From NCBI GenBank assembly GCA_034003725.1, contig JAVEYB010000005.1, positions 38,831 to 70,830 of the forward strand: 32,000 nucleotides of DNA, read 5' to 3'. Below the pieces are notes generated by a model. That model was not told the DNA's origin. It saw nothing but the letters and a program-made list of their open reading frames with translations, and did no database searches. The translations under genes and the position numbers were made by a program. The stretch is from Candidatus Zixiibacteriota bacterium (GTDB taxonomy: Bacteria > Zixibacteria > MSB-5A5 > GN15 > FEB-12). Shown piece by piece: positions 4,006 to 24,539 of this stretch. The first letter of the stretch is position 1. Each line of letters opens with the position of its first letter.

Positions 4006-4012
4006 GATGCAT

Positions 4013-6628: not shown

Positions 6629-6650
6629 TTCGTTACTCCTTCCGAGTAGG

Positions 6651-8349: not shown

Positions 8350-8376
8350 AAGTAAATCGACAGAGGCAAAAGTTCT

Positions 8377-11104: not shown

Positions 11105-11120
11105 TTGGATAACTCCTTTC

Positions 11121-11327: not shown

Positions 11328-11345
11328 AAACAGGGCTTAAGCGCC

Positions 11346-12023
11346 TTATACCTCGTTGCCCCAGCTTTTCCAGCCGCGGCGGCGGTTCCGGGCGAACAAC
11401 TCCAGATACCGCATTCCGGGGTACATGTGCTCAATCATCTCGTAAACCGAGTGCGGCTTTTTGCTATGGATGGTTCGTTTCTCACGAAACACCGAACGGA
11501 GCCGTTGCGACGGTGGCGGCACCGGAAACGTGCCCTTGCGGCCGACCAGTAACAATTCGTGTTGATTTCGCCACCAGACGCCAAGCCCCATGATCTCCTT
11601 GTCCCACACAGCATGGCTGCGATACCGAAAGCCCCAAGCTTCCATAACTTCCAGCGCATTACCAAGTATGGCCGGTGGCGTCCACAGATACAGAACCGAA
11701 TCTGCGGCCGAAGGAATCTGTAAGCTCTTTATGTCCTGCAAATCCATAGTCGGGTAGTGCTTCTCTATTTTGGTATTCATGCCCGACCATTTGTAGCGCC
11801 AGGGTGGATCGGCATAGATGATATCGAACCTCCCACGTGGCATGGGAGGTGTGTCTACACCGGCTGCAACATCAATCCGAATCAAGTGCTCAGGGATCGT
11901 GTGCCTATTCCAGATTGGTGCACCTGCTTGATGCAACCAGTGCACCGGTTGTCTGTCCCGATGTACCTCCCGATGACCTGCCGAAAGGCTGTTGTTTCCG
12001 TAAGAGTTAAGACGACTAGACAT
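11346..12023 (-). CDS. MT-A70-family N6-adenine DNA methyltransferase
   Basis: Catalytic DPPW motif in FDIIYADPPWRYKW. Size and the C-terminal HSKKP..VYE.IE pattern are typical of MT-A70. No cognate restriction gene is visible. Confidence 0.85.
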   Translation of the reverse strand: MSSRLNSYGNNSLSAGHREVHRDRQPVHWLHQAGAPIWNRHTIPEHLIRIDVAAGVDTPPMPRGRFDIIYADPPWRYKWSGMNTKIEKHYPTMDLQDIKSLQIPSAADSVLYLWTPPAILGNALEVMEAWGFRYRSHAVWDKEIMGLGVWWRNQHELLLVGRKGTFPVPPPSQRLRSVFREKRTIHSKKPHSVYEMIEHMYPGMRYLELFARNRRRGWKSWGNEV

Positions 12024-12039
12024 TTTGGATTCCCTTTCA

Positions 12040-12501
12040 TTAAGCGCCGGTAGTTCGTCCCCGACGCCTGTGTGGTCTATTAGGTGTTGATTTACTGCGC
12101 CTAGGCGACCGAAGCCTTCGTGTGACTCGTCTTACAGGCCATTCAGGTAGCAGCCGTCGGGCGAGCCAGAACACGAACACCAAAAAGGCAATGGCCAGCA
12201 GTAGTGGCATTAAGCTATCGATGTTGGTCAAAATCGTGATTACAAGTGCGATCCCGAGCACGGCTGTTACAGTTCGCACAATCAAGCCAGGTTGGTTAAA
12301 GAGGCGGAACAACCGATTGACGACGTAGCCGCCGGGAGCCGGTTCGCTGAGCCGTGCGCTGCCGCATAACCCGCAATACTGGCTATCGGGCGGGTTTTCG
12401 TGCCCGCTCTGACAAAGCCTGAGATTCCAGGTACGGCCGCAATAGTGGCACCGTTCCGGCTGACCGGGTGAGATTCTCCTGCACGACGGGCACCAACGCA
12501 T
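12040..12501 (-). CDS. double zinc-ribbon protein with a C-terminal TM helix and a basic tail
   Basis: CPSC...CHYCG...C.SGH...YCGLCG gives four CxxC-type pairs. TM region IVRTVTAVLGIALVITILTNIDSLMPLLLAIAFLVFVFWLA. Arg-rich C-terminus. Confidence 0.6.
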   Translation of the reverse strand: MRWCPSCRRISPGQPERCHYCGRTWNLRLCQSGHENPPDSQYCGLCGSARLSEPAPGGYVVNRLFRLFNQPGLIVRTVTAVLGIALVITILTNIDSLMPLLLAIAFLVFVFWLARRLLPEWPVRRVTRRLRSPRRSKSTPNRPHRRRGRTTGA

Positions 12502-12502
12502 G

Positions 12503-13363
12503 CTAGCTACGCTCCTTTGTGACTTCCTGACGATGCAGTGAAGTGGTCGTTTGTTGCCCCGGCATATTCCAAACGGAGCCGAAAAGCGGGTTTTGTGTGA
12601 CTTCTGTGAGAGTGCCGACCAATACTCGCAGTGAAGGCGACTGTGGCAGTCTTGCGGCGAGACTTGCCGCTCTGCCTGAGGACGTGGTTACAATCAGAAC
12701 CGTCAGCCGACTGAGCTTGAACAGCTTTCGGAAATAGCCGGATGACTGGGCCAATTGATAGAGTTCGAGCTTTCGGCGAAGGCGTCGAAGCGACTCACTG
12801 CCAGTATCCAGTTCCAGACAGAAGTGGTACAGCAGTCGGTTAATGGCGTATCGACCATACCCGTCCGGCCTCGGCATGACTGCCAACGGCACTTTGGCCG
12901 TCTGGCAAGTATTGAGGAAGGCGTATTCGTTAAGCCAGGAGATCCATTCACCTCCGGACGTTTTCAAACAGTGGCCGATTAATGCGGCAGCGAAGTCGCT
13001 GATGCCAAGATCATGCGCCAGCGTGCTGTCGGGCATGCGCCGAATTCGACGTCGGCGGCGCAGTAGCATATCCAGATCATTCTGGCTTATAGAAGCAAGG
13101 TGCCGGATACCTTCTCGGCCGAGATAGTAAATAGCTGGTGCGGACCCCGATTGCACTGGCATGAATCGCCGTTCCACCAAACCGGCATCGAATAATTGCC
13201 TTAGGCGACGATTGATTCGGGTGACACACGGCCAGTCCAGGAGCAATTGCAACTGCTCCCGAGTGAGAAGGAGATGTCGGTCCAGCAAGTTGAGTAGCTC
13301 TCGATCTCGATCACTCAAGACCAGGCGGGGCGCACTTTGCCGTCTGGAGGGGTTGGCTCTCAT
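12503..13363 (-). CDS. replication-relaxation family protein (Replic_Relax-like), copy 1
   Basis: N-terminal wHTH-like LSDRDRELLNLLDRHLLLTREQL...RLRQLFDAGLVER and the conserved LELDTGSE motif. It is a paralog of 19368-20498. Confidence 0.72.
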   Translation of the reverse strand: MRANPSRRQSAPRLVLSDRDRELLNLLDRHLLLTREQLQLLLDWPCVTRINRRLRQLFDAGLVERRFMPVQSGSAPAIYYLGREGIRHLASISQNDLDMLLRRRRRIRRMPDSTLAHDLGISDFAAALIGHCLKTSGGEWISWLNEYAFLNTCQTAKVPLAVMPRPDGYGRYAINRLLYHFCLELDTGSESLRRLRRKLELYQLAQSSGYFRKLFKLSRLTVLIVTTSSGRAASLAARLPQSPSLRVLVGTLTEVTQNPLFGSVWNMPGQQTTTSLHRQEVTKERS

Positions 13364-14862
13364 CAGAATCCCCCTTCGCGATAGCCGGGCGGCAAGTCAT
13401 GATTGCCTCTGTCCGGATCAGCGTCAGACGCCGGTAGCTCGTTTACCTTGGGTGGCTCAGATTTGGGCGGCTCACCAAAACTGGAGTGCTCATCGGAAGA
13501 CGCCGGGGGCCACGTTACACCGCCGACGTTGCGGTACATTTGGCGGACCATTTGCTCTTCGATCCGACTGAGCTTCTCCGGAATGGGGAGATAATCGACT
13601 GATACCTGGCGGGCCGGTTTCCCGCCGACAAAGACCATCGCCTCGCCAACTCCGAGCCGGGCGATACGGCTTCTGAGTAACTCCCGTTCCTCCCCTTGCA
13701 GTTCTGCCGTTACGGTCTTGAGATTCTCGGCGTCCATACGAAAGCAGCAGCGTACCGCGCAGTTGGTGAGAATGGTCGAGCGCATGGCTCGGTCCATGCC
13801 GGTTAGCGACTGGCCGCTCAAGAGGACCGGAATCTTCAGCTTGCGAAACTCGTTTAGGGCCGGAGCAATGATCTCGTGGACTCCGGCCAAGGCGTTGAAT
13901 TCGTCGATTATAAGAGTCGACAGGTGGCGCTCCGGCTCCGGAATGGGCAAGCGCGCGAAAGCTGCCTGTTGCTCGACTGCCAGAATGATACTGGCGACTA
14001 GTTCAGCATCCCGTCCGAGAATGCCCTTATTGAGGTCAAAGAGAACGAGCATGCGATCATTCAGGCATTGGAACAGGTCAAGATCGGACGTATTCGATCC
14101 GAACATGACGCGGAGCTTCGGATCGGCCAGAAAGGTGCTGAGTCGCGGGAGGAAAACCTGCGTGTAGAAGTCGCGCATGGCATCAGAGAGATGAAGCCAG
14201 CGATTGAGAAAGTAATTACGGCAGGCTTCATTGCGAACAGTCTGACAATGGTGATGCAGGAGGGCAGGATTTCTAAGTAGCGGTTCGGTCATTGTCAGCG
14301 GCAAACCATGCTCGGCCATCAAACAGAAGGTGTTGGCTATCAATTCACTTGAGGGCGCACCCCAGGTTGCCTCGGGCCATTGTCGGCGGAGCATAAGTTC
14401 CATGTGCTGCCCGACTCGATGCGGTTTGGCCCATGTCACTTTGGCCAGCGGATTGAATCGAACCAGCGGGGCCTGGTCATCAAAGGAGACGACGAGGATT
14501 CTGCTCAAGACTCGCTTGGGCAGGACGCCGGTGGTGACCAATCGGGCTGCCAGTGAGAGGAACTTGGGAACAGCGTCATGAATGTCGACCATCAGTCCGC
14601 CATAGCCATGCATGAGCAAGTTCACGAGGAAGACGAATATCAATGAAGTCTTCCCGCCACCGGACGAGCCCAGCGAGACAGCGTGGCGCTGCAAATCAGA
14701 CAATTCTATGGCGAACGGCTCAATGACTCGACAATCTGTCAAGGCGCTCGCCTCTCCGATCTGCAATCGTCCCGCGCCCGGACTCGCATTCGACTTCGCC
14801 GATCGGGGTCGAGCCAACAGCCGTTCAAAGAGCGGTATGAGCATCCGTTCTATCGCCGTCAT
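13363..14862 (-). CDS. soluble P-loop ATPase, type IV coupling protein (TraD/TraG/VirD4)-like
   Basis: Walker A GSSGGGKT, Walker B LIIDEFNAL, then RKLKIPVLLSGQSLTGMD, which fits the T4CP pattern (R/K..gi....QS..Q). No N-terminal TM helices. ATGA overlap with E1, and a 1-nt overlap with the next gene. Confidence 0.72.
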   Translation of the reverse strand: MTAIERMLIPLFERLLARPRSAKSNASPGAGRLQIGEASALTDCRVIEPFAIELSDLQRHAVSLGSSGGGKTSLIFVFLVNLLMHGYGGLMVDIHDAVPKFLSLAARLVTTGVLPKRVLSRILVVSFDDQAPLVRFNPLAKVTWAKPHRVGQHMELMLRRQWPEATWGAPSSELIANTFCLMAEHGLPLTMTEPLLRNPALLHHHCQTVRNEACRNYFLNRWLHLSDAMRDFYTQVFLPRLSTFLADPKLRVMFGSNTSDLDLFQCLNDRMLVLFDLNKGILGRDAELVASIILAVEQQAAFARLPIPEPERHLSTLIIDEFNALAGVHEIIAPALNEFRKLKIPVLLSGQSLTGMDRAMRSTILTNCAVRCCFRMDAENLKTVTAELQGEERELLRSRIARLGVGEAMVFVGGKPARQVSVDYLPIPEKLSRIEEQMVRQMYRNVGGVTWPPASSDEHSSFGEPPKSEPPKVNELPASDADPDRGNHDLPPGYREGGF

Positions 14863-15674
14863 GATTGTCCCTCACGATTTTCACCGCACAGCGGACATTC
14901 GGGATTTCTCGGGACAGTGCGGACAAGCTCCGGCATGAAACCGGCCAGGCGAATCTCCCGATAGTTCCAGCCAATCGGGCGGCCCATAACCAGCGAGTCG
15001 ACGGCGAATGATGTCAGAGCAGCGGCCAGCTTGAGCGGATCGATGATGGCCGGTACGCCGGGACAGGGGGTGATGTCAATGTTGATTGCGTGCGGCAGGA
15101 TGCAACCGAAACAGGCTTCGCCAGGACGTTGCACCAAGCAGTAACATTGATCGCCGTCGCGTGATACGGCGCAGAACAGAGCCGGTACGTGCTTTCTCAT
15201 AGCCCATTCCGCGACGGCCCGCCGCGACTGATCGGAGTCTACACCACAAATGACGACAGCGGGAGTAAGATCGAGACCTCGCTCCAGCGCCGCTTCGAAG
15301 AAATAGGGATAGGCATTGATGTGACTGCCCATACAACCGTCTTGCGCCAGATTGCGAGCAAGGCGTTCAGCCTTATTCTTCCACAAGTCTTTGGGTGTAA
15401 ATTGTTGCCGGTTGAGATTGGACAAGTCGACGGTGTCACCGTCAAAACAATGGATTTCTCCATAGCCTTTCTTGACCAATGAGTGAAGTATCTCACCCCC
15501 AAGTCCTCCGCAGCCGACCTGCAGCACGGTCGTGTCCCAGGCAGTTTGCTGATTCCAATTCGGAATGCCTTCCTGGCGAGACCATACCCGGTCGCGCTCG
15601 GTACCCTGATCTCTCAGATCGGGACTTTGAAACGATTTAGACTTCAGTGAGCCGATAGAGCTTTTCCGCCGCAT
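14859..15674 (-). CDS. ThiF/MoeB-type E1-like adenylyltransferase (BilD-like)
   Basis: Rossmann motif VGCGGLGGE, then DGDTVDLSNLNRQ, then two CxxC pairs (CFGC, CPLC) as in the MoeB/ThiF zinc site. Start set at ATG 15674, preceded by AAGGAG plus 6 nt; the track start 15743 lacks an SD. Confidence 0.85.
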   Translation of the reverse strand: MRRKSSIGSLKSKSFQSPDLRDQGTERDRVWSRQEGIPNWNQQTAWDTTVLQVGCGGLGGEILHSLVKKGYGEIHCFDGDTVDLSNLNRQQFTPKDLWKNKAERLARNLAQDGCMGSHINAYPYFFEAALERGLDLTPAVVICGVDSDQSRRAVAEWAMRKHVPALFCAVSRDGDQCYCLVQRPGEACFGCILPHAINIDITPCPGVPAIIDPLKLAAALTSFAVDSLVMGRPIGWNYREIRLAGFMPELVRTVPRNPECPLCGENREGQS

Positions 15675-16326
15675 GGCGAACTCCTTTCCCTGTGACACAA
15701 ACACGAAACGGCATCCGGTGAGAAAAGAATCGGGCGTAGCCATCGCGCGAATAGATGATCCCCACCGTGCGATAGCCAGCCGTTTCCAGCTGCATCTGAT
15801 TGGTCAGATCGATCTGTGACGGCAGATTCGAAGATTTCCCGCGGCCCGGATGCATGTGTAGATACGCCGTCAGCAGACTGCCCCGTTTTTCGAGTTGCGC
15901 CAGGATTCGGCTGGTAGCGGCCGCATTCGAAGTCGCCCGCCCGTACTCGGAGCGGTCGTGCTCAATGTCTACGGTGCGCTCGATAGTGAGCAGGTCATTG
16001 AAAGCAGTGCCGGTTGCGTACCGAATCACTTCGTTCTCATACTGCCGCAGAAGTTCGTACTCATTGTAAAGCAGTTCGGAGCTCACCAAGAAAGTAGGTT
16101 GGTTAGGCAAAGTATCACTGGCCAAAGCTCTGGCATGAGTTAGGCCGTACAGGAGCTCGTGATCTGTCATCAGCCGCCTGAAGATCGCCTCAGCATCGGC
16201 AATGTCTCCTTTGGTCAAGGCAGATCTCAGGGCGGTGAAATCTACCTGCGATTGCATGCCTAGACTTTGACACAATTGCTCCAGACGCTCTACGGTTAGC
16301 TTTCGCAAAAACCGTTCTCGTTCCAT
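15637..16326 (-). CDS. JAB/JAMM (MPN+) metallopeptidase (BilC/Cap3-like)
   Basis: HMHPGRGKSSNLPSQID fits a HxH...S..D JAMM motif with a slightly long spacer. An upstream Glu (ENEVIRYATGT) is present. About 100 aa of helical N-terminal extension. Confidence 0.8.
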   Translation of the reverse strand: MERERFLRKLTVERLEQLCQSLGMQSQVDFTALRSALTKGDIADAEAIFRRLMTDHELLYGLTHARALASDTLPNQPTFLVSSELLYNEYELLRQYENEVIRYATGTAFNDLLTIERTVDIEHDRSEYGRATSNAAATSRILAQLEKRGSLLTAYLHMHPGRGKSSNLPSQIDLTNQMQLETAGYRTVGIIYSRDGYARFFSHRMPFRVCVTGKGVRHAAEKLYRLTEV

Positions 16327-16360
16327 TTTCTATTTCCTTTCGATACAAGTGATTGACCCT

Positions 16361-16675
16361 TTATCCCTCGAATGCCTGGCGCAGGGTTAGTTCTATGCCC
16401 ACGATCCCGTCAACAACCGATCTGCCTCGACGTGAAAAGTGAACTTCGTAAACGTCATCTCCTTTGCGGATGAAACAGGGGCCGTGAGGGCCGGACAGTA
16501 CTTCCTGCGGCGGGTCGTAGATGTAGTATGACCACTTGGTGGCGTGGCGTTTGACGATGCGACCCTGCCACGCTCCGAACGGGCTGACCCGGTACCATCC
16601 GAAAAAACTGTCGCCACGCCGTTGCCACCGGCGATCCATCCACAGCGGCCGGAACCTTCGCGTGATATTGACCAT
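16361..16675 (-). CDS. 104-aa protein, candidate minimal E2-like (BilB-position) enzyme
   Basis: Start set at ATG 16675 (MVNITRRF), preceded by AAAGGAGAA. The sequence has a basic N-terminal helix, three predicted strands (FFGWYRV, AWQGRIV, KWSYYIY), then DPP...GPHGPC. This is loosely reminiscent of the UBC PP...HPN...C layout. It occupies the E2 slot between the Ubl and JAB genes. Confidence 0.4.
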   Translation of the reverse strand: MVNITRRFRPLWMDRRWQRRGDSFFGWYRVSPFGAWQGRIVKRHATKWSYYIYDPPQEVLSGPHGPCFIRKGDDVYEVHFSRRGRSVVDGIVGIELTLRQAFEG

Positions 16676-16706
16676 GGTCTTTTCTCCTTTCTGGTTGGAG
16701 GCGGGT

Positions 16707-16736
16707 GGGAGACGCCGGTTCTGCCCGACGCCTCCC
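16707..16736 (-). promoter_or_regulatory. GC-rich intercistronic hairpin between the Ubl and E2-like genes
   Basis: GGGAGACGCCGG / CCGACGCCTCCC forms a 12-position stem with 2 mismatches and a 6-nt loop. It lies inside the 84-nt Ubl/E2-like spacer. Confidence 0.35.
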
Positions 16737-16759
16737 TGCACCGACTCGGTTCGGTACGC

Positions 16760-17014
16760 TTACCGGCTCCCGCCGTGGTGATGGATAACATGGCCCACGT
16801 CGGTCCGACTCGCGGCATGCAGCTTCTCGCCGTCCTTGATTTCGGCGTAGATGTTTTCCGTATTGCCGAACACGTGAGCGCCGTTGTCCTTGGACAGGAC
16901 AAAGTCCTCCCCGATTCCGAGATCGCGGAAGATGTCCTCGGGTGTGGTACCGGGTTCAATAGTCACGTCGTGACTACGCCCTGAACCGGCGATTACGATT
17001 ACAACTTGCTTCAT
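16760..17014 (-). CDS. 84-aa ubiquitin-like (beta-grasp) protein precursor with a C-terminal GG-SR tail (BilA-like)
   Basis: AAGGAG lies 7 nt before the ATG. The strand/helix pattern (VVIVIAG, DVTIEPG, TPEDIFRDLGI, DFVLSKD, IYAEIKDGEKLHA) is compatible with a beta-grasp fold. A flexible tail ends HHHGGSR. It is the first gene before E2-like/JAB/E1. Confidence 0.62.
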   Translation of the reverse strand: MKQVVIVIAGSGRSHDVTIEPGTTPEDIFRDLGIGEDFVLSKDNGAHVFGNTENIYAEIKDGEKLHAASRTDVGHVIHHHGGSR

Positions 17015-17101
17015 GACAAACTCCTTTCAGTTTGAGGGTTTTGTTTGCTTGTCACGAAGCCAAAATGGACCGCTTTCAGATGCGAGTCCACCCAGTCGTT
17101 A

Positions 17102-17118
17102 TGTAAGGATTGTAAGGA
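17102..17118. promoter_or_regulatory. tandem direct repeat TGTAAGGA-t-TGTAAGGA; candidate winged-helix operator upstream of the Ubl operon
   Basis: Perfect 8-bp repeat with 9-bp periodicity in the 110-nt spacer between the TPR-wHTH stop (17125) and the Ubl start (17014). Confidence 0.35.
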
Positions 17119-17124
17119 CGGGAA

Positions 17125-18594
17125 TTAGAGGCTTGGAATCGTGTAACCGCGACCTCGTTTGGTCACGATGATATGCTTGACGGGGAGTTTTTTGCGGATT
17201 TCGGCGATGAAATAATGAGCCCTACGAGGTACGCCTTCCAGCGATTCGGCGAACTCCTCATACAGTTTGATTATGTCAGTGTTTGACACGAAATGACCCT
17301 CGCGCTCGACCAATAGGTTGAAAATGGCAAGCTGGAGGTCGGATAGTTGGCCGATGGAGAGTGTTTCCTCACCGTAAATCTCACCAGAAATCAGGTCAAT
17401 TCGGACGCCGTGACGCGAAAATACCGTAACGGCCGACTTCTTAAGTGAAGTGATAAAATCCCTGAGATCACGTTTCAGGGTCTGGGCCAACAGGCCAGAA
17501 TGTGGGGAGTCATCAACTCCGGACTTTGATAGGTCCCGAATTCGGCGTGACAGTTCAGCCGCCTGACCGCTTGGTCCGGTTTTGTTGAGCGATCCGAAGG
17601 CATGAGAAAACTGATCAAGCGTTTGACTTAGGATAGTGCTGTGCAGTAGGAAATCGGGTGCGATGAATTCGATAGCTCTCTTCAAGTGATGAATGGCCTG
17701 TTTGTAATCCCCAAGACCATTATAGGCCGTACCATAACCGAGCGGAACGAAAGGAAAAAGGGATTGCGATTTGAATCGCTTCGTCTCCTTCTCGGCAAAC
17801 CTGAACCACTCCAACGCTCTCTTGAAATCGCGCTTGTGAAGAAGCAAATTACCGACGCGCTTGAGAATGTCTGCCGACTTGGTCGAGACGTCGTGTTTCT
17901 CGGAAGCGCTCAGTGCGGCGTCATACATCCTCTCAGCCTTGTCGAAGTCGCCGACAGACCTGTAAATATCACCCTGACATAACAGACTTTCAACGAATAG
18001 TTCGAGTTGCTCCATTGAGGCCGATTGTACGTGCTCCAACAGATCCAGAGCCTTCTCATAGTTTCCCATAGCTCCATAGACCTGCCCTTGCTGAAGCATG
18101 GTCTCCAACCGCGATCGGGAGTTATCAGCATCGTCTGAGATGTGAAGTGCCTGGCGAAGATATACCAGCGCTTGATTGTGATTTTGTCTCAAGCTGTCTA
18201 TAGACGCAAGTTGGACCAGAGCGTCTGCTTCCAAAGCCGCCAGACCGTGATCACGAGCAATTACCAGCGCCTCGGCGGTTTGCTCTTCAGCTTTGGCGTA
18301 TTCCAGGTACTGCAGAAACAGGTAGCCGGATTCGATCAGCGCGTTCGCATACGTTTCCTGTGGGCACCTGTCTAGTGCCATTTTGACGAATTTGGTTGCC
18401 AGGCGCTTGGCCTTGGTCGCCTCACCTGTAGACATCAATGCTTTCGTCTGAAGAATGAGACATTCGACCTGACGTGGGAAGTCCTTTGTCCTTTGAGCTT
18501 CCTTGAGAGCCTTCTCTGAAGCTTTAAATGATGCGCCAAACTCGTCCTGCAAATAGAGGCGTTCGGCTTTGGTAATTAGTTCGCTATCTTTCAT
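17125..18594 (-). CDS. TPR-repeat protein with a C-terminal OmpR/PhoB-type winged-helix DNA-binding domain
   Basis: About 400 aa of TPR-like repeats (A..Y...G.Y..A periodicity). C-terminus LSDLQLAIFNLLVEREGHFVSNTDII...RRAHYFIAEIRKKLP...IVTKRGRGYTI matches the trans_reg_C pattern. Confidence 0.8.
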   Translation of the reverse strand: MKDSELITKAERLYLQDEFGASFKASEKALKEAQRTKDFPRQVECLILQTKALMSTGEATKAKRLATKFVKMALDRCPQETYANALIESGYLFLQYLEYAKAEEQTAEALVIARDHGLAALEADALVQLASIDSLRQNHNQALVYLRQALHISDDADNSRSRLETMLQQGQVYGAMGNYEKALDLLEHVQSASMEQLELFVESLLCQGDIYRSVGDFDKAERMYDAALSASEKHDVSTKSADILKRVGNLLLHKRDFKRALEWFRFAEKETKRFKSQSLFPFVPLGYGTAYNGLGDYKQAIHHLKRAIEFIAPDFLLHSTILSQTLDQFSHAFGSLNKTGPSGQAAELSRRIRDLSKSGVDDSPHSGLLAQTLKRDLRDFITSLKKSAVTVFSRHGVRIDLISGEIYGEETLSIGQLSDLQLAIFNLLVEREGHFVSNTDIIKLYEEFAESLEGVPRRAHYFIAEIRKKLPVKHIIVTKRGRGYTIPSL

Positions 18595-18659
18595 TAAGCA
18601 AGTACGGCATCAAAGTGACTCATGGTGATCTGAATAAGTGGCATTTCCCAGCACTCCTG

Positions 18660-19136
18660 CTAAGAGTTTTCACTGTTCGCCACAAAGGCACCTGCTAGAA
18701 AGAGCCCAATACCCCAGAGTATTCCTGTGGCAATATTCTTTTCATGCTTCTTACGCAATAAGAATTGCTGCATCCCACGGATCGATGACTCTGGTCTTCG
18801 ATAATCTAGGAGAATATACTCTCTCCCGTCTAACATAGAAAGCTTAGACGGATCAAAGCCGGGCAAGGCTATAGGTATTATTAGTTTCTCCTTTCCCTCT
18901 GCATAGCCGATTTCCTGCTGGACATAGGTAGATTGTTGACTGGCAGGAGAAAGTAGCACAATCATTCCGTCTGATCGATCAATTTCGGCTTTGACTTTTT
19001 CGGAAATATGCCGACCAGGCTGTACGTCGTGCTCGCAAAGGTAGACTTCCACTTCAATCTGTCGCGCACTATCCACAATGTAATTTGCCACTTGAATGTC
19101 CGCACTACTGTGACTGAGAAACACTCGATAAGACAT
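18660..19136 (-). CDS. small TIR-domain protein with a C-terminal TM anchor
   Basis: VFLSHSSAD start, and a conserved Glu context STYVQQEIGYAEG typical of bacterial TIR_2 domains. C-terminal hydrophobic helix ATGILWGIGLFLAGAFVA. Start set at ATG 19136 (AAGGAG plus 5 nt) rather than GTG 19142. Confidence 0.85.
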   Translation of the reverse strand: MSYRVFLSHSSADIQVANYIVDSARQIEVEVYLCEHDVQPGRHISEKVKAEIDRSDGMIVLLSPASQQSTYVQQEIGYAEGKEKLIIPIALPGFDPSKLSMLDGREYILLDYRRPESSIRGMQQFLLRKKHEKNIATGILWGIGLFLAGAFVANSENS

Positions 19137-19169
19137 GTTCACTCCTTTGATAACATGAATTTGATGGTT

Positions 19170-19199
19170 GAATATACATCTGAAGATGTTGAATACGCA
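19170..19199 (-). promoter_or_regulatory. candidate sigma70 promoter for the TIR/TPR-wHTH genes (TTGCGT-18-TATATT)
   Basis: Read on the minus strand: -35 at 19199-19194 and -10 at 19175-19170, about 35 nt upstream of the TIR start codon. Confidence 0.35.
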
Positions 19200-19367
19200 A
19201 GACTTCCGGCTCCACCATTCCGCGCCGCAGCGGACGGCGGCAACGCGGGGTGACGGCCCGGCTGCGACCAGGGCGGATCGCTATCACCCGTAACGCGCCC
19301 TGCTCCTACGTAACAGCTAATGGTCACTCGGTGAGGAAGGCGGAATGTATGAAGCCGGAGTTCCCGG

Positions 19368-20498
19368 CTATTCGATGAGACTTGTGAGTTCGCTGTTTGC
19401 ACGCGGCGTTAGCCAGCAGCGGTCGAACAGTGACTCCGGTCGTATGACCGAATACGCTTCCGGCGTCGTGAAAAGAAATAGCGAAGTAGTAACATAGAAT
19501 CTGCCCATGTCAGATAGCTGGGATATGATATTGGCAATTCTCCCGGACACGTGCGTCTTCGACCGAATGATCCCGGGAGTCACTAACAACACTTGGAACC
19601 CATTGAGACCTGAATCATCGCCGGTCGCCACTGAGTTTCTGCCGTTATCGATGTTGAGGCCAACTACAGTCCCATCGGGTAAGCGGCGGTAGCTATAGCG
19701 TCGCGGGAATCGCCCGGACTTTCTGTATAGGCGGTATGCGATGAGCTTGCGGCGAACATCAGTACGCTGGCCTTGCGCCGAAATTGGCTCGGTTCCCCGG
19801 TCAATCTCAAGGAAGTAGTGTTTTCGTTGGCCACTCGGAAGCTCCAGGCCGAAGAATGCATCGGGATAGACCGGCAATGTTTGCTTCTGATCCCAACGGT
19901 CAGTGAATTCGACATAGTCACGAAGCACTTCGCCTTGCTCCCAGAACAGCAATCTGACTTCATCGGCAGACCTTTGGCAGGCAAGTTCCAATGTCACTCG
20001 AAACCGTGTGACCTCGATAGCGTGACGGAGAAAAGGCGATTTGACGCGATTACGCTCAACTATCCGGCGAATCTCATAAGCGGGTACGCCGACGCGTTCT
20101 GCGAGTATAGGGGCGCATTTGAGCCCCACACCATAAATGGCACGTGGGGCACCATGTCCCCGTCCCATTGGCTGATCGGTCGGATAATGGCGCTCCAGAT
20201 ACCCGGCGTGGAAAAGCTGCCGGAGTCGCTTCGAGAGGGCCTGCTGGCCAAAACCATATCGTTTGGGGCGACTTTTGCCATCTGTCCCCACGGCGTATCG
20301 GATTGACCGACTCCGGTAGTCCGGTTGGAGGAGGTGCCAGAGCAGTTCGAGGGTCAGAAAGCGGTGGTTGTAGACAAGCTGAATGACGGCATAATCTCGC
20401 TCTTTGAGGGCAATTTCCGATGGGGAGGCTTTGTCCCGGACATAGCGTGATCGATGGGGTCTACTGGCTGTCAATGTCATGGGTTGAATGTAATCCAA
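19368..20498 (-). CDS. replication-relaxation family protein (Replic_Relax-like), copy 2
   Basis: LKERDYAVIQLVYNHRFLTLELL...RLRQLFHAGYLER and LEIDRGTE motifs are shared with 12503-13363. The track start 20498 is TTG; ATG 20480 (MTLTASR) is an alternative start. Confidence 0.72.
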   Translation of the reverse strand: MDYIQPMTLTASRPHRSRYVRDKASPSEIALKERDYAVIQLVYNHRFLTLELLWHLLQPDYRSRSIRYAVGTDGKSRPKRYGFGQQALSKRLRQLFHAGYLERHYPTDQPMGRGHGAPRAIYGVGLKCAPILAERVGVPAYEIRRIVERNRVKSPFLRHAIEVTRFRVTLELACQRSADEVRLLFWEQGEVLRDYVEFTDRWDQKQTLPVYPDAFFGLELPSGQRKHYFLEIDRGTEPISAQGQRTDVRRKLIAYRLYRKSGRFPRRYSYRRLPDGTVVGLNIDNGRNSVATGDDSGLNGFQVLLVTPGIIRSKTHVSGRIANIISQLSDMGRFYVTTSLFLFTTPEAYSVIRPESLFDRCWLTPRANSELTSLIE

Positions 20499-20531
20499 TT
20501 CTAATTCCGGCTTTGCCGGATTCCTCTTCCG

Positions 20532-21003
20532 GACGCCCCCCTCGTCGGAGGCCGAAAGTCACGCCCACGGCGTGACGGCCGCCCCGTGAAGCCGAGCCCA
20601 AGGGGCGACGGCTGGACGGTTGGCGGTTCGAGCCGGCCGACTCTGCCCGCTTCGCCGAGTCCCTCCACCAGATGTCAAATCGTGGGGCGAGGCCAAGGAG
20701 CGCGAACCGTTTGGTGGTTCGCAAGCGACGCAGCCGCACCTTACTGGCGGTCCCTGTCCTGCTTCGTCACTTGGAGATCGACGACATAACTCTCGGCAAG
20801 TCAAAAGAAGCAGGACAGGCAGGAAGCGTGCGGGAAGGGGGCAGAGTCGGGCGGCGACCGACCTCATTTGGCCCTTATAAGACGGCCATAAGGCCGTCGC
20901 AGAAAGTAGTAATGATAATACATCAATTCTACTTTCTTAAGCTGTCCTCGGGACGGCTTACCTGGCCAATGAGGGAAGCGAGACCGACCGACGAGGGGGG
21001 CGT
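20532..21003. other. GC-rich noncoding element with nested long-range helices (candidate large structured RNA or ssDNA-fold origin)
   Basis: Three perfect nested complements: 20532-20548 / 20987-21003 (17 bp), 20637-20648 / 20839-20850 (12 bp), and 20753-20765 / 20807-20819 (13 bp). Local hairpins at 20558-20576 (8 bp), 20702-20722 (7 bp) and 20881-20898 (7 bp). Flanking hairpins at 21014-21034 (9 bp) and 21041-21055 (6 bp). No credible ORF. Confidence 0.45.
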
Positions 21004-21199
21004 CTTTATCCAAGGGCAGTCCAGTGGACTGCCCGGCCACGGCGCGACACGCGCCGAAGTATTCAGGATGTTCGTCTTTTTCGGCAGTAATAGCATAGGT
21101 CGCCGAAGTCGACCTGACGCTTGCAGACGCTGCATTTGGGTTTGCTACGAAAGCGCGTTCGGCGGTTCTTACGGAAGGTACTGGTGGGCTGTCTCGGTC

Positions 21200-21745
21200 T
21201 CATCGGGCAAGCCTCCGTTTCTTCCTTCGGGGAGAATCAGTCCCAGTGGGAGGATGCAGTTGCAGGAATGCGACTCCACAAGCGATGGCATCAAACATGT
21301 TGCCGAAATAGCGCTCCTGACTGCCGGTCCGGCCTCTCAAATAATAGCGTGTCTCCGGAAAGCGCGACATGACGGATTTCGCGGCATCGAGCTTTCGGGC
21401 GTTGCCGTTGCCGGTTACAATCCGCCGGATTGTTCTGGCATTCAGCCCGTGGCAGGGTACGCGGTGAGACTTACTCAATGATTCGATCTTTTGGATCACT
21501 CGAATTAGCCGATAGTTGGACGTAGCCTGGGAGAATTGGTTACGCTCGAAAACAAGGACGGATGGCTGTTTTTCGACAAGCATTCGGGTGAGGATGTCTT
21601 CTACGTGCTCAAGAATGATCGGCAATCCTCCCTGACGAATCGACTTGATGCCGAAATCAACCAGTTTGGTAGAATTGAAGGCGGCATAGCCGAGGTATTG
21701 TGTTCCGGGATCTATGGCGAGCAGGCTATTTCGAGTCTCGCGCAT
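21200..21745 (-). CDS. RuvC-like Holliday-junction resolvase (element-encoded)
   Basis: LLAIDPGTQYLGYA (first catalytic Asp), VLVFERNQF (Glu), FDAIACGVAF (Asp). These are colinear with the E. coli RuvC motifs IDPG...E...DA.A.A. 181 aa with a basic tail. Confidence 0.7.
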   Translation of the reverse strand: MRETRNSLLAIDPGTQYLGYAAFNSTKLVDFGIKSIRQGGLPIILEHVEDILTRMLVEKQPSVLVFERNQFSQATSNYRLIRVIQKIESLSKSHRVPCHGLNARTIRRIVTGNGNARKLDAAKSVMSRFPETRYYLRGRTGSQERYFGNMFDAIACGVAFLQLHPPTGTDSPRRKKRRLAR

Positions 21746-22001
21746 ATTTCTTGACCAGATAGATGAACAGGGCGAGCCGTGAACGTTTGACTTTGTCGGG
21801 TGGTACCGACAAGGTGTGTTCGTGAGCTTTACGGACTATCTGTTCGGGGTACTTGCGGCAGTGCATCTGATAAGTCGGCAGGTTGTCCAGGTCGCCGAAT
21901 TCCTCAGCGATAGATCGGGCGAGTTCATCCGCAGACTTGTTAGTCGGATCGGACTCGTTGGTTTGCGGCTCGTTTTTCACCGCCGGAGTTATGTTGGGCA
22001 T
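21726..22001 (-). CDS. hypothetical 91-aa protein (acidic N-terminus, basic helical C-terminus)
   Basis: ATG start. Overlaps the RuvC-like gene by 20 nt. No recognisable domain. Confidence 0.5.
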   Translation of the reverse strand: MPNITPAVKNEPQTNESDPTNKSADELARSIAEEFGDLDNLPTYQMHCRKYPEQIVRKAHEHTLSVPPDKVKRSRLALFIYLVKKYARDSK

Positions 22002-22022
22002 AGTAGTGTTGGTTAATGGTTG

Positions 22023-22307
22023 TTAGTACTCGATTACGATATCGTGGTCTCTTTGCCGGGCGTTCACCTCCTCTCGAATCTTGCGGAAGTGGTCGCTGAA
22101 GAGCACTTCGACCGGACACCTGAGCGCTGCGGAGAGTCTGAGGGCAGTCTCCAGCGTGGGCACGCGCGACCCTGCTTCCCAGTGAGAGATATGATGCTCA
22201 ACGCGGATGCCGACCAGTCGCGCGACGTCCCGCAACCGGAGATTCCGTTTCTTGCGGAAAATCCGGATGTGATTCGGATAATTGGTCCAATCGGTGCGGG
22301 ACATCAT
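22023..22307 (-). CDS. XRE-family helix-turn-helix transcriptional regulator
   Basis: RKKRNLRLRDVARLVGIRVEHHISHWEAGSRVPTLETALRLSAALRCPVEVLF is a classic HTH_3 pattern. First gene of the colinear block. Confidence 0.85.
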   Translation of the reverse strand: MMSRTDWTNYPNHIRIFRKKRNLRLRDVARLVGIRVEHHISHWEAGSRVPTLETALRLSAALRCPVEVLFSDHFRKIREEVNARQRDHDIVIEY

Positions 22308-22563
22308 AGGGCTGTTTGTTTTTGTTTGTTACTTTCGTTCGCTTACAGGATAACCCCGCATGAAATCAGCCTCAATAACCGCCCCCGGACAATGTCGGTG
22401 GACAAGTCGTGAATCGTGTCCCCGGAGAGCTTCAAAGCCACCATGTGGCGTGTTGTTAGAGAACGGCCCCGCAAATGAGTCTTGGGCCTGTTTTAGACGT
22501 GTTTAAGCGGCCCTCGTACTATTGGGGTCGCAGCCGTAATTTGAGTCTGTGGATAAGTGAGAC

Positions 22564-22591
22564 TTGACACCGTTTCACGGTCATGTAGAAT
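22564..22591 (+). promoter_or_regulatory. near-consensus sigma70 promoter TTGACA-16-TAGAAT, divergent from the XRE gene
   Basis: TTGACA at 22564-22569 and TAGAAT at 22586-22591, read directly. Confidence 0.45.
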
Positions 22592-22597
22592 CAAGAA

Positions 22598-22675
22598 AAG
22601 AGGGGGAATAGGCCTTTTTCAAACCAAAAACAGCTACCTATGGTAGCTAATTCGCTCGGCCGAGCAATATTTTTT
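22598..22675 (+). ncRNA. candidate ~80-nt small RNA (promoter to weak terminator)
   Basis: Lies downstream of the 22564 promoter. Hairpin AGCTACC-TAT-GGTAGCT (22632-22648), palindrome GCTCGGCCGAGC (22654-22665), then a T-run (22670-22675). No ATG-initiated ORF. Confidence 0.25.
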
Positions 22676-22749
22676 GACTTACAAAGCTGTGAAGGATCGT
22701 CATCTAGTCAATGAATTGCCCGGCTTTTTTCTATTCTGAATCAAAATAG

Positions 22750-22781
22750 AATAGGGGATCGTCTTCGGCCGATCCCCTATT
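22750..22781 (-). terminator. strong hairpin AATAGGGGATCG-N8-CGATCCCCTATT; possible minus-strand terminator
   Basis: 12-bp perfect stem. On the minus strand it is followed by CTATTTTGATTC. On the plus strand no U-tract follows. Confidence 0.35.
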
Positions 22782-22907
22782 GTTGTAGTGCTCCCATGGG
22801 AACATACGGGTGAGGCGCCAGCTAAGTGGCGACCATCTTTTGGTGACAACGTGCGTGGCTCGGATACGGCTCTTACCAAGGACTTATGACGGTCCAGCTC
22901 TTCGGCC

Positions 22908-23108
22908 TTACGGACACTGTTGGCCTAGACGCACCATCTTGTGTCTGAGCGCTAGAAAGCGCAGAACCCCTACGGTATTGGCTCGCAATGAGCAATCGTG
23001 GTAGGCAATCCCAAACGCCGGCGGCGATTTACTTGGGCGATCCAATACCTCGGGTATAGTTATCCGGTACCGTAGGCAGACATCAACATGGTCACTCTGT
23101 ATGAGCAT
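22908..23108 (-). CDS. possible 66-aa ORF downstream of a strong SD (uncertain)
   Basis: AGAAAGGAGGC at about 23119-23129. The first ATG, 7 nt downstream, gives only a 17-aa peptide. The ATG at 23108 gives 66 aa with no recognisable motif. Confidence 0.2.
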   Translation of the reverse strand: MLIQSDHVDVCLRYRITIPEVLDRPSKSPPAFGIAYHDCSLRANTVGVLRFLALRHKMVRLGQQCP

Positions 23109-23147
23109 CTCATGGCGTGCCTCCTTTCTCTTTTGAAGGTGAACGAT

Positions 23148-23507
23148 TTACGGCAGTAATTTATTCGCCGTGTCTCCTATTGCAACGCATAGTTTTCTCG
23201 GGAACCCGAGCATGAACAACCCATCAGCTACAAACTTACAGGCGAAGTCGGCGAACTGACGAATCGGTTCACGAAACATCATGTAGCCACCAACGATTGC
23301 AGTAGCGCGTATTGGATGGCGCTTGATCCAACCACTGGCTCGTTTAATAAACGCCTCTTTGGGCTGTGATTGCCGGGCAAGTGTAACGGCATGTTCCCGA
23401 TTAGTAGAATAGCCGGTCCCCCATGTTCTGCCAGTCTTCCGGTCCCGCATTTCGCAGCACCATTCGTTGTCGTCTACTTTGTAGCAGACAGGATATGTGG
23501 CACGCAC
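23148..23507 (-). CDS. hypothetical 119-aa protein
   Basis: GTG start preceded by AAGGAGG plus 6 nt. No recognisable domain. A TTGACA-16-TAGGCT promoter-like element lies upstream on the minus strand. Confidence 0.55.
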   Translation of the reverse strand: MRATYPVCYKVDDNEWCCEMRDRKTGRTWGTGYSTNREHAVTLARQSQPKEAFIKRASGWIKRHPIRATAIVGGYMMFREPIRQFADFACKFVADGLFMLGFPRKLCVAIGDTANKLLP

Positions 23508-23731
23508 ATTTGACCTCCTTGTTTGTAAAGTTCAGTTTTTTCAGTCGAGGACCGCAAACAGAGTCGCCGATTGAAAAAGCCGAAAGCGCCGTCACTTAGT
23601 TGTGACGACGTTGCCAAATTGATGGAAAAGTGCCCTTTTGATGACTCCTCCTCCTGTTTTCTACAGCCTATCACAGTGAGATTTGCTGTCAAGAACCCGA
23701 CCGCCAATTTCCTGAATTACGAAGGTTTGAC

Positions 23732-24142
23732 TCAACTGAGTATCCCTTTGACTTTTGTGACGACTTCCGATGGTGAAAAGCGCGCCTTTACCCAATAATC
23801 AAGAGCTCCCAGACCCCTTGCACGCTCGATATTGCTCTGATTCTCCTCATCGAGATTTGTAAAAACGACGACCGGGATGTTGACGGTCTGATTATTCTTC
23901 TTCAGTTGTTCCAGCACCCGAAACCCGGCTTCCTTGTTCAGTGTCATCGGGAGTCCTTCCCGTTTGGGCAAGATTAAGTCGAGAAGTACAAGGTCGGGCG
24001 TCAACCTTTTCGCAAGCTCCAATCCCGATTCGGGAGTATTCGCGGTAACCAATTCAATTTCCTTTTCGAACGAGAACTTCAGTGTATACATGTGAAGGAT
24101 GTCGGGATCGTCGTCGATCAGGAGAATGGTCTTCTTATCCAT
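23732..24142 (-). CDS. single-domain response regulator (CheY-like receiver)
   Basis: ILLIDDDPD...DLVLLDLILP...VVVFTNL...K receiver signature. Confidence 0.9.
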   Translation of the reverse strand: MDKKTILLIDDDPDILHMYTLKFSFEKEIELVTANTPESGLELAKRLTPDLVLLDLILPKREGLPMTLNKEAGFRVLEQLKKNNQTVNIPVVVFTNLDEENQSNIERARGLGALDYWVKARFSPSEVVTKVKGILS

Positions 24143-24151
24143 ACGCGATTG

Positions 24152-24535
24152 TCACAATTTAGTCAGTCTCGACTCGACCAGCGAGACAACTTCCTGCGGA
24201 GTTAATTTGGCTTTCATTACGTATGCCTCGGCTCCGAGACGCTTTCCCTTTTCGGCAGCGTCTTTTTCTCCCATGTTGGTCAGGAGATAAACCGGAATAT
24301 CCTTGAGGGTCGGATCAGCTTTCATCCGTTTCAACACTTCAAAGCCGTCAAGATCATCCATGCGAATATCCAAAAGGACCAGGTCGGGTTTTTCTTTCTT
24401 AACCATATCAAGCCCCCGATATCCGCCGGTGGCTACCAACAAGTTCAGCCCGGAAAGTCGAAACTTCAGTTGATACATTTCGATAAGGGTGGGATCATCT
24501 TCTATCAGGAGAATGGTCACTTTCTTTGAATCCAT
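24152..24535 (-). CDS. single-domain response regulator (CheY-like receiver)
   Basis: ILLIEDDP...DLVLLDIRMDDLDG...VYLLTN...K receiver signature. Confidence 0.9.
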   Translation of the reverse strand: MDSKKVTILLIEDDPTLIEMYQLKFRLSGLNLLVATGGYRGLDMVKKEKPDLVLLDIRMDDLDGFEVLKRMKADPTLKDIPVYLLTNMGEKDAAEKGKRLGAEAYVMKAKLTPQEVVSLVESRLTKL

Positions 24536-24539
24536 ACAG

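Follow-up and report, generated by a model that had tools for sequence, protein, structure and literature searches.

The stretch of DNA analysed here, hereafter the window, comprises 32,000 nucleotides (nt) of contig JAVEYB010000005.1 from a Candidatus Zixiibacteriota bacterium (assembly GCA_034003725.1, contig positions 38,831 to 70,830 of the forward strand). In this study, we examined a gene on its minus strand, at 18660..19136, which encodes a protein of 158 amino acids (aa) made up of one TIR domain and a predicted C-terminal transmembrane (TM) tail, together with the integrative element in which the gene lies and the family of similar proteins, TIR-TM below, to which it belongs. An earlier note on this DNA, made from the letters alone, had described the protein as a one-domain TIR with a conserved glutamate and a single C-terminal TM helix, quoting the motifs FLSHSSAD and VQQEIGYAEG; both are present in the 158-aa translation, as aa 6-13 and aa 72-81, and the description as a whole was borne out by Pfam, an AlphaFold2 (AF2) model and hydropathy.

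The open reading frame (ORF), 158 codons plus stop, has 30 full-length homologues and, in clusters at 50% identity, 476 representatives at E≤1e-30, and is therefore far beyond chance. A GTG two codons upstream of the ATG could also serve as a start and would give 160 aa, but the ATG at 19136-19134 is preferred because AAGGAG lies 5 nt upstream of it and the N-termini of the homologues are uniform, all of them opening with M-x-Y-x-V-F-L-S-H-S in the alignment. This AAGGAG (19142..19147, minus strand), read directly in the sequence, is a strong Shine-Dalgarno site. Among Pfam families, TIR_2 (PF13676) matched at E 3e-17 and 63.7 bits against a gathering cut-off of 28, over aa 5-112 and profile positions 1-110 of 122; ThsB_TIR (30.8 bits, cut-off 21.2) and Pfam TIR also exceeded their cut-offs, while PF13271 (DUF4062; 16.7 bits) and CAP12-PCTIR_TIR (22.4) each fell below a cut-off of 24.7 and a similarity to nucleoside 2-deoxyribosyltransferases was sub-threshold (E 0.0025). 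The best PADLOC matches were ThsB models (4e-10), at domain level only, and a weak spbK match (4e-4) covered the TIR part only, at profile positions 149-249. NCBIfam holds no equivalog model for the TIR-TM family; it returned a weak Thoeris type III TIR match, ThcB4, at 32.6 bits against an equivalog cut-off of 220.

The AF2 model, built on an alignment of 31 family sequences, has a mean pLDDT of 88.2 and shows a TIR alpha/beta core followed by one unbroken helix, residues 115-155. The TIR domain, aa 1-114 (18795..19136, minus strand; delimited by the AF2 model and Foldseek), runs through the strands (E) and helices (H) E3-8, H11-25, E29-32, H44-54, E57-62, H70-81 and E85-90. When the model was compared with the PDB by Foldseek, the top 50 matches all had probability 1.00 and 49 of them were TIR domains, the exception being the nucleotide hydrolase MilB; at the top stood TIRs with NADase activity, namely SARM1, the TIR-APAZ protein of MapSPARTA (TMq 0.70), the SpbK filament (9phb) and AbTir (TMq 0.67). 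The predicted catalytic glutamate, Glu75 (codon GAA, 18912..18914, minus strand), was located by the alignment and by a search of the family profile against PDB sequences, in which AbTir, BtTir and the SARM1 TIR were the best matches (1e-9) and Y71-V-Q-Q-E75 aligned with W-T-N-Y-E of AbTir and BtTir, whose aligned glutamate we take to be the catalytic one. The residue is invariant in 31/31 aligned sequences and retained by 109/109 short family members, and the arrangement Y71...E75 conforms to the aromatic-x-x-x-E signature that follows strand C in enzymatic TIRs. The other invariant positions of the family alignment are F6, S8, H9, D13, E35, S69, V72, P88, L102 and G104. E35 belongs to the BB-loop region, aa 34-40 (C-E-H-D-V-Q-P; 19016..19036, minus strand; alignment and AF2), where D37, P40 and the adjacent G41 are near-invariant and where pLDDT, at 73, is lower than in any other block of the TIR domain, in keeping with a mobile BB loop. 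The BB loop is needed for the assembly of TIR NADases (PMC12847820).

Behind the TIR domain, the AF2 model places a basic juxtamembrane helix, aa 115-134 (18735..18794, minus strand), that runs on into the TM helix; over the 12 residues preceding the TM, net charge averages +1.0 in the family. The C-terminal tail anchor itself, aa 135-153 (18678..18734, minus strand), was recognised by hydropathy and family conservation as a hydrophobic 19-mer with a Kyte-Doolittle mean of 2.04, followed by 5 residues, and it is the sole strongly hydrophobic stretch of the protein, which has no signal peptide. With a basic helix ahead of the TM and no signal peptide, the TIR should face the cytoplasm. The TM sequence is not conserved across the family, and GxxxG was found in 14/102 tails against 11.4 expected from shuffles, with small-xxx-small and GxG not enriched either; lacking both sequence conservation and a packing motif, the tail looks like a plain anchor.

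The family is compact, about 155-170 aa, and unnamed. The 30 homologues from a word-indexed search (E≤1e-19) have lengths of 156-174 aa and identities of 39-99%; a 31st, at E 2e-5, is without a tail, and in the alignment a hydrophobic tail ends every sequence but the most distant one. An exhaustive profile search of 1.84 billion cluster representatives gave the 476 proteins mentioned above, and about half of the best 150 matches were proteins of 150-215 aa that cover the whole profile including the tail. A C-terminal TM is present in 102/109 of the short members, with a median of 4 residues after it; among the seven without, P0071, P0134, P0179 and P0180 have C-termini that look frameshifted and another is a truncated sequence of 120 aa. 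We also fetched 35 family loci (numbered L001 and upward below), 30 of them distinct, and all 35 encode the tail. When one genome per GTDB species was scanned, 24 loci were found, every one in a metagenome-assembled genome (MAG): the bacterial ones belong to Acidobacteriota, Ignavibacteria, Chloroflexota, Planctomycetota, Actinomycetota, Stahlbacteria and Goldiibacteriota, the archaeal ones to Promethearchaeota, Methanomicrobia, ANME-2, Nanoarchaeota and Micrarchaeota, so that the distribution is patchy over unrelated phyla in both prokaryotic domains. Plasmids in PLSDB yielded generic TIR-core matches only, whose identity did not exceed 34% and whose alignment stayed within the first ~125 residues, short of the tail, and phages in INPHARED yielded no match to the family; one member lies on an IMG/VR viral contig (L036). 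Literature searches found no description of a tail-anchored or TIR-TM bacterial or archaeal protein, and neither PADLOC 2.0 nor NCBIfam nor the literature searched has a name for the family.

Two other groups of proteins are close to the family. P0032, P0033, P0073 and about 70 other proteins of 1,000-2,300 aa score highly against the TIR-TM profile; they contain 3-7 tandem TIR domains, the three that were read in sequence also have a TM segment and C-terminal WD40-type repeats, and many of the remaining ones share a first TIR at a fixed position near residue 236. These giants are a separate multi-TIR architecture whose TIRs resemble those of the TIR-TM family. P0042 (246 aa), P0052 (278 aa) and P0054 (237 aa) are close relatives in the TIR core that bear a soluble C-terminal extension of ~100 aa, preceded by a short hydrophobic stretch in P0042 and by none in P0052 and P0054, and P0042 and P0054 have a common ...L-T-G-x-G... 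ending; the extension is an alternative C-terminal module on the same TIR.

The nature of the tail bears on whether the helix itself might be the killing part, with the TIR as an oligomerising sensor or scaffold and the clustered tails permeabilising the membrane, as in CBASS, Pycsar and type II Thoeris. TIR and TM proteins do occur together in phage AC1 (PMC9122126), Pycsar uses PycTM (PMC13069673), and the tail of the TIR-TM proteins is conserved in 94% of members. However, a single helix with ~4 residues outside and with no conserved sequence or packing motif is more like an anchor than a pore former, the invariant glutamate and the conserved BB-loop residues argue for selection on enzymatic activity, and P0042, P0052 and P0054 replace the tail, or follow it, with a soluble C-terminal domain. 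We thus consider a membrane-damaging role for the tail quite improbable.

An integrative element with a conserved backbone, at least 19 kb in length, lies for the most part at positions 11346-32000 of the window. It carries a large serine recombinase, a tyrosine recombinase with an LVIVD-repeat protein, an HTH_3 protein, a RuvC-like protein, two Replic_Relax proteins, a TraG/HerA-like ATPase and an MT-A70 methyltransferase, and it has relatives in Acidobacteriota and Zixibacteria MAGs. The serine recombinase gene starts near 30916 on the plus strand and runs off the end of the window; no att-type direct repeats of at least 12 nt were found between the edges 10600-11500 and 30300-32000, and the right end of the element lies beyond the window. 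The backbone order is serine recombinase, HTH_3, a small protein, RuvC-like, Replic_Relax, a variable slot, and a TPR protein with a C-terminal winged helix-turn-helix (TPR-wHTH), then two small proteins or a ubiquitin-like (Ubl) operon, a TraG/TrwB/HerA-like ATPase, an excisionase-like HTH_17 protein and a tyrosine integrase. In the window, the left slot edge, upstream of the TIR gene, is the Replic_Relax backbone gene (19368..20498, minus strand; Pfam PF13814, 3.5e-14), which holds the same position in L002, L039, L040, L041 and L042, and the right edge, downstream, is the TPR-wHTH backbone gene (17125..18594, minus strand; Pfam TPR_12 and Trans_reg_C, the latter an OmpR-type wHTH at the C-terminus). 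The recombinases, this backbone and the collinearity described next agree with the earlier placing of the TIR gene inside a mobile element.

The window and the related element L039 align collinearly by blastn over window positions 11350-18570 and 19204-28122, at 90-91% nucleotide identity, including an operon for Ubl, E2-like, JAB and E1 proteins, and the only break in this collinearity is a cassette of 633 bp, 18571..19203 (minus strand), with breakpoints at 18570/18571 and 19203/19204, in place of which L039 has 1,088 bp of unrelated sequence (8976-10063). Besides the TIR ORF, the cassette takes in 67 bp on the upstream side, with the Shine-Dalgarno site, and 89 bp on the downstream side, where it extends over the first codons of the TPR-wHTH gene. 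Its GC content, 43.6%, is some 10 points lower than the 53% average of the element, and the flanks have 50-56%. In L040 and L042 nothing lies in the slot between Replic_Relax and TPR-wHTH; in L039 (8998-9837, minus strand) it is taken up by a 279-aa orphan and in L041 (7014-8609, minus strand) by a 531-aa orphan, each on the opposite strand. Contigs from an independent sludge DNA run (X2) cross both cassette junctions, which shows that the arrangement is not an assembly chimera. The gene is thus replaced or absent at a fixed site between backbone genes, as hotspot cargo would be, and the clean swap with L039, the empty slots elsewhere and the low GC of the cassette mark it as a self-contained, compositionally foreign, single-gene cargo. 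The two orphans of the slot had no Pfam or PADLOC match, nor did the genes of viral contig L036; as hotspot cargo, the two orphans are candidates for unknown conflict genes.

Other parts of these elements also vary. Next to the serine recombinase, L040 (878-2417) has a CBASS-type CD-NTase (SMODS) gene and a gene with a Cap15-like receptor domain, and L042 (1-4340) has an Eco57I-type restriction-modification (RM) gene, an SMC-like AAA_23 ATPase and ArdC, of an anti-restriction family; known cargo of this kind indicates that the element family ferries conflict genes. In the window (22400-28122) and L039, a glycosyltransferase, a 7TM-GAF histidine kinase and two response regulators stand between the LVIVD and HTH_3 genes where L002 (6349-6755) has only ~400 bp, and this region is another cargo insertion. 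To the left of the element, positions 1-10784 are ordinary chromosome with a Cus-type heavy-metal RND efflux operon (AcrB-family pump, HlyD/HMBD adaptor, YHS protein and OEP) and a pair of histidine kinase and sigma-54 response regulator. The DNA comes from a landfill metagenome, and many sludge metagenomes contain related sequence.

Carriage as cargo, in a slot beside replication and transfer genes, raises the question of whom the gene serves. It could act for the mobile element, as a weapon of exclusion or competition or as an addiction-type toxin, with NAD+ depletion or membrane damage as output, and defence cargo in P2/P4 hotspots does mediate competition between elements (PMC9122126). The one-gene cassette brings no antitoxin or immunity gene along, and most family members are found in RM-type islands outside the element family of the window, which speaks against a role tied to the element. 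We regard such a role as unlikely in its own right, although it overlaps mechanistically with the reading favoured below and differs from it in the target only.

In the immediate surroundings of the TIR gene, the earlier note had seen no ThsA, SLOG or STING partner, and there is none among the named genes of the window by Pfam (ORFs of at least 110 aa inside or opposite these genes were left unscanned, and the serine-recombinase ORF was read from its translation). It had also considered that the TIR might be the effector arm of the adjacent system, and had called for an analysis of co-occurrence with Ubl, E1 and JAB genes. On this view, the TIR would serve the Ubl/E2-like/JAB/E1 operon as its effector, or form a two-gene module with the TPR-wHTH protein as sensor or regulator. 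TIR and TPR-wHTH genes do lie on one strand, 65 nt apart with no terminator-like site between, and adjoin each other in two elements, the window and L002, and two-gene or fused systems of TIR plus TPR are known, namely E. coli TIR-II (PMC11350192) and BcTir/Tpr (10.1101/2023.05.26.542521). From the TIR side, however, a tblastn search with 16 neighbour proteins of the window found no Ubl, E2-like, JAB or E1 (ThiF) homologue in any of the 35 TIR loci; the sister element L002/L003, with a TIR 64% identical to that of the window, is alone in sharing the backbone genes of the window, TPR-wHTH included, while in L002 other genes replace the Ubl operon, and the TIR is present without the TPR gene in 28/30 distinct loci. 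From the other side, L039 combines the same Ubl operon with a TPR-wHTH protein of 91% identity and lacks the TIR, and L040, L041 and L042 likewise have TPR-wHTH without an adjacent TIR at the same backbone position; it is this fixed position in L039-L042 without the TIR that marks TPR-wHTH as a backbone gene rather than a partner. A word-indexed protein search gave 23 homologues of the TPR-wHTH protein (~490 aa, 40-92% identity), and in a metagenome scan its only matches were two spurious ones to TPRs, at 25% identity. The two proteins also differ from the BcTir/Tpr pair, in which BcTir is catalytically dead, with K at the glutamate position, and BcTpr has an N-terminal NAD glycosidase domain (10.1101/2023.05.26.542521), whereas the TPR protein of the window has a C-terminal Trans_reg_C wHTH and no glycosidase domain, and its TIR keeps the glutamate. 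Co-occurrence thus failed in both directions, and a partnership of the TIR with either neighbour, very improbable in our view, is largely refuted by these comparisons; the TPR-wHTH gene and the Ubl operon appear to be positional neighbours.

The Ubl region itself (window 14859-17014, minus strand; L039 11620-13776) encodes Ubl, a 105-aa protein, a JAB-like protein and a ThiF E1 in a Bil-like order. The Ubl protein has 84 aa and ends in HHHGGSR, and the 105-aa protein carries an HGPCF motif; neither this protein nor the JAB protein had a significant Pfam, PADLOC, NCBIfam or PDB sequence match. At the same position, L002, L040, L041 and L042 have a single-TM protein of 66-76 aa and a protein of 180-207 aa before the TraG/HerA-like ATPase. 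No sequence similarity was found between the Ubl operon and these p67/p200 backbone genes of the related elements, p67 being the small TM protein, and the position looks like a second variable region of the element backbone.

As for expression, a weak promoter-like site lies at 19171..19200 (minus strand), with TTGCGT (-35, 19195-19200), a spacer of 18 nt and TATATT (19171-19176). It falls wholly within the swapped cassette, the -35 starting 3 nt inside the upstream boundary. The earlier suggestion that the gene has its own promoter therefore stood in part: the hexamers and spacer are there, within the swapped 67 bp, but the match to sigma-70 is poor, the -35 hexamer agreeing at 3/6 positions, and the site was not reported by a sigma-70 scan. 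A promoter of its own is nonetheless plausible, because the cassette brings 67 bp upstream of the ATG with it. A terminator scan of the 65 nt that separate the TIR gene from the TPR-wHTH gene showed no hairpin of terminator type, so read-through into the latter is possible, and co-transcription of this kind may be a consequence of the insertion site. In a sludge run labelled RNA-Seq, the only one of its kind and read at contig level, unstranded and of uncertain library type, contigs covered the TPR gene and TIR positions 18539-18984 and depth was zero over 19204-19400, where the DNA run is continuous; this is compatible with a transcription start just upstream of the TIR gene and carries little weight.

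A conserved partner was also sought across the family. Among the 115 proteins encoded within two genes of the TIR in the 30 distinct loci, no Pfam family occurred in more than five, and the leading ones were all of RM type (N6_Mtase, Eco57I, MmeI_Mtase, Methylase_S, HSDR_N, DUF1016/YhcG, N6_N4_Mtase and Mrr_cat), a picture with which a PADLOC census agreed. An all-against-all blastp of the 115 neighbours, made for a recurrent unannotated partner, gave RM-type clusters only, and the small downstream ORFs of L005 and L010 (74-75 aa) were dismissed as candidates since they are mutually unrelated, one being MqsA-like. A type IIG RM enzyme lies directly upstream of the TIR in L007, with a gap of 9 nt, and two genes upstream in L012 and L014, and a homologous type IIG enzyme is near the TIR in L018; in L013 a methyltransferase-Mrr fusion overlaps the TIR start, and in L010 the TIR stands between an HSDR_N protein and an N6_N4 DNA methyltransferase related to that of L013, beside a toxin-antitoxin pair. 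An Mrr-STAND NTPase is near the TIR in L016 and SLFN/AlbA_2 proteins in L030 and L035. HsdS and DUF1016/YhcG PDDEXK nuclease genes are within two genes of the TIR in archaeal L027, L028 and L029 and in L035, from a Thermodesulfobacteriota MAG, L027 having in addition a partial N6_Mtase ORF; the placement of the gene in these four type I RM loci recalls prrC-like abortive-infection genes embedded in such loci. All in all, at least 12 of the 30 distinct loci have an RM or other defence-type gene no more than two genes away from the TIR. Defence genes make up a few percent of prokaryotic genes, and by this informal comparison the proportion is well above expectation. In addition, L004, L005/6 and L036 are prophage-like or viral contigs. 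In L024 (9356-9994), from a Goldiibacteriota MAG, a gene for a LexA-like repressor (LexA_DNA_bind plus Peptidase_S24) stops 4 nt short of the start of TIR-TM, which suggests regulation of a DNA-damage-linked or prophage type at that locus.

The same census bears on whether the protein makes a signal instead of acting itself. A generator of the ThsB type would convert NAD+ into an ADP-ribose (ADPR)-derived messenger for an effector elsewhere in the host genome or on the element, and the ThsB models of PADLOC, the ThsB_TIR family of Pfam and the weak Thoeris type III match of NCBIfam all point in that direction; SpbK, too, makes N1-cADPR, the receptor of which, if any, is unlinked (PMC12847820). 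However, no ThsA, SLOG, Macro, SIR2 or caspase-type effector, nor any other recurrent neighbour, was found among the neighbours in the 30 loci or in the window, the NCBIfam score of the protein is far below the equivalog cut-off, and a cassette that moves as a single gene would usually arrive without an unlinked effector. On balance, we give a signal-generating role a low probability.

It could also be asked whether the protein belongs to conflict at all, or is a membrane-associated housekeeping or regulatory enzyme that processes NAD or nucleotides. The sub-threshold similarity to nucleoside 2-deoxyribosyltransferases and the ordinary metabolic neighbours at a few loci are what such a view can draw on, and homologues that are housekeeping genes outside mobile contexts had been named in advance as a sign that the defence interpretation was wrong. 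What was found are homologues in RM/defence, prophage and mobile-element contexts; the patchy distribution across unrelated phyla, the way the cassette is present or absent between near-identical elements, its foreign GC and the RM or defence neighbours just described all argue the other way, and a housekeeping function is, in our judgement, the least probable of the explanations considered.

Taken together, we favour, with moderate confidence, the reading that the gene encodes a stand-alone, membrane-tethered TIR NADase that works in abortive infection or exclusion and travels as hotspot cargo. It is supported by the single-gene cassette, by the defence-type genes at no fewer than two-fifths of the distinct loci and by the prophage and mobile contexts, and of the two roles offered in the earlier note it leaves the stand-alone abortive-infection effector, which best fits the comparative data, and drops the effector arm of a neighbouring system. 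In TIR NADases such as SARM1, AbTir and SpbK, the active site lies between adjacent TIRs and is switched on by ordered self-association. By analogy, the protein would be inserted tail-first, with its TIR in the cytoplasm on the inner face of the membrane; in the uninfected cell, the tethered TIRs would stay apart and be inactive, as an NADase site arises only where TIRs lie side by side in an ordered assembly. A cue from infection, by a phage or a competing element, would cluster them in the plane of the membrane, and since the protein has no other domain, only the TIR surface, the juxtamembrane helix or the membrane anchor could sense this cue. The assembled TIRs may then cleave NAD+, leading to its depletion and possibly to products of the ADPR or cyclic ADPR (cADPR) type, and loss of NAD+ would bring growth arrest, so that the infection is aborted or the rival element excluded and the host population of the element protected.

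Several observations weigh against this reading. The protein has no recognisable sensor domain, so the trigger is pure conjecture, and the TM lacks a conserved packing motif, so that nothing points to TM-driven assembly. Some TIRs with an intact glutamate are signal generators or scaffolds rather than NAD depleters. All family members come from MAGs or metagenomes, with none in PLSDB plasmids or INPHARED phages, and several loci have ordinary chromosomal neighbours, for example L001 (Na/Ala symporter and heme genes) and L021 (SelB). The alternative cargo genes of the same slot are without defence annotation in Pfam and PADLOC, the promoter-like site at the TIR gene is weak, and the single RNA-type run, uncertain in library type, was read at contig level.

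A further step, which we put forward as a speculation with a rather small chance of being right, is that tethering is itself the regulatory principle: confinement to two dimensions would let a bare TIR respond to membrane-proximal infection by clustering into an NADase array, the cues being genome injection, membrane remodelling or the assembly of phage structures at the envelope. If so, TIR-TM would represent a previously unrecognised class of immune sensor-effector, the simplest known TIR immune module, common to bacteria and archaea, and a functional parallel to the activation by induced proximity of membrane-tethered animal receptor TIRs.

Apart from this proposal, the family comprises hundreds of diverged members of ~157 aa from uncultivated bacteria and from archaea, among the latter MAGs of Asgard, methanogen and DPANN groups, and if defence is conferred, it would be among the smallest TIR immune modules and would raise the questions of how a sensor-less TIR detects infection and what membrane tethering adds. 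The locus also offers a clear case of a cargo hotspot, in a little-known family of integrative elements of environmental bacteria, that could be mined for further unknown cargo genes. While the concept itself is familiar, the minimal membrane-tethered design, the spread over bacteria and archaea and the clean swap at the hotspot make it a worthwhile target.

Compared with known systems, the window TIR fails the defining features of every named multi-component TIR system considered. Like the window TIR, ThsB of Thoeris types I-IV is a small stand-alone TIR protein, and it gives the best PADLOC and secondary Pfam matches; but Thoeris is defined by a linked ThsA-type effector (SIR2-SLOG, Macro-TM or caspase-like), none of which is linked to TIR-TM in the 30 loci, and ThsB proteins are soluble, usually with an extra beta-sheet subdomain, whereas the window TIR is tail-anchored, and neither the linked effector nor a ThsB/ThcB equivalog match was found for it. 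The nucleotide-sensing TIR effectors considered (TIR-SAVED, TIR-STING, PycTIR and Cat1) belong to CBASS, Pycsar and type III CRISPR systems, in which a SAVED, STING, cNMP-binding or CARF sensor is fused to the TIR and a cyclase is linked to it; the window protein consists of TIR and TM only, and no locus has a cyclase next to the TIR. SPARTA requires an APAZ fusion and an adjacent prokaryotic Argonaute (pAgo); neither occurs in the window or at the loci, and the structural resemblance extends to the TIR domain only. The DUF4062/NIR proteins of Swarozyc and Evangelion are set apart by the canonical TIR_2 of the window protein, and the TIR+TPR pairs (TIR-II and BcTir/Tpr) by the lack of a conserved TPR pairing.

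A TIR and a membrane component in a defence hotspot of a mobile element are also combined in the phage AC1 hotspot system and in type II Thoeris (PMC9122126); there, however, TIR and TM are separate proteins and the signal is diffusible, whereas TIR-TM is one polypeptide of 158 aa. As an analogy only, the animal TLR and IL-1R receptors have a cytoplasmic TIR, a single-helix tether and activation by induced proximity, but their topology is the opposite, with the TM N-terminal to the TIR, a large ectodomain and TIRs that are scaffolds, and the homology is confined to the TIR fold. Judged by its residues, the window TIR would belong with the enzymatic TIRs: AbTir, BtTir and the SARM1 TIR share its fold at ~20% identity, and the W/Y-x-x-x-E motif aligns, but N-terminal coiled-coil regions are present in AbTir and BtTir, and ARM and SAM domains in SARM1, and none of the three proteins is tail-anchored.

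In its way of working, the protein would be most like SpbK and the short single-protein TIR systems of E. coli. SpbK (YddK) of Bacillus subtilis ICEBs1 is, like the window TIR, a single-gene TIR carried as cargo of an integrative element, and it is a top structural match; it is a NADase activated by clustering on the phage portal, its activity depending on the TIR self-association that clustering drives (PMC12847820). It has, however, 266 aa with an N-terminal four-helix-bundle sensor that docks on the portal and no membrane anchor, whereas the window TIR starts at residue 3 with no N-terminal domain, the feature on which membership of the SpbK family turns, and ends in a TM, so that the similarity is confined to the TIR core. 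In the E. coli systems, as reported (PMC11350192), one short TIR protein suffices for defence by cell death or growth arrest, the active-site glutamate is needed and portal or tail-fibre proteins are the triggers; these proteins are described there as a short TIR domain only, which sets them apart from the present family by description, and a TM domain is mentioned there for only one of the other new TIR systems. The TIR-TM family may thus be regarded as an architectural variant of single-gene TIR defence: single-gene TIR defence proteins that have a sensor domain or are soluble were already known, and what appears to be new here is a bare TIR joined to a tail anchor.

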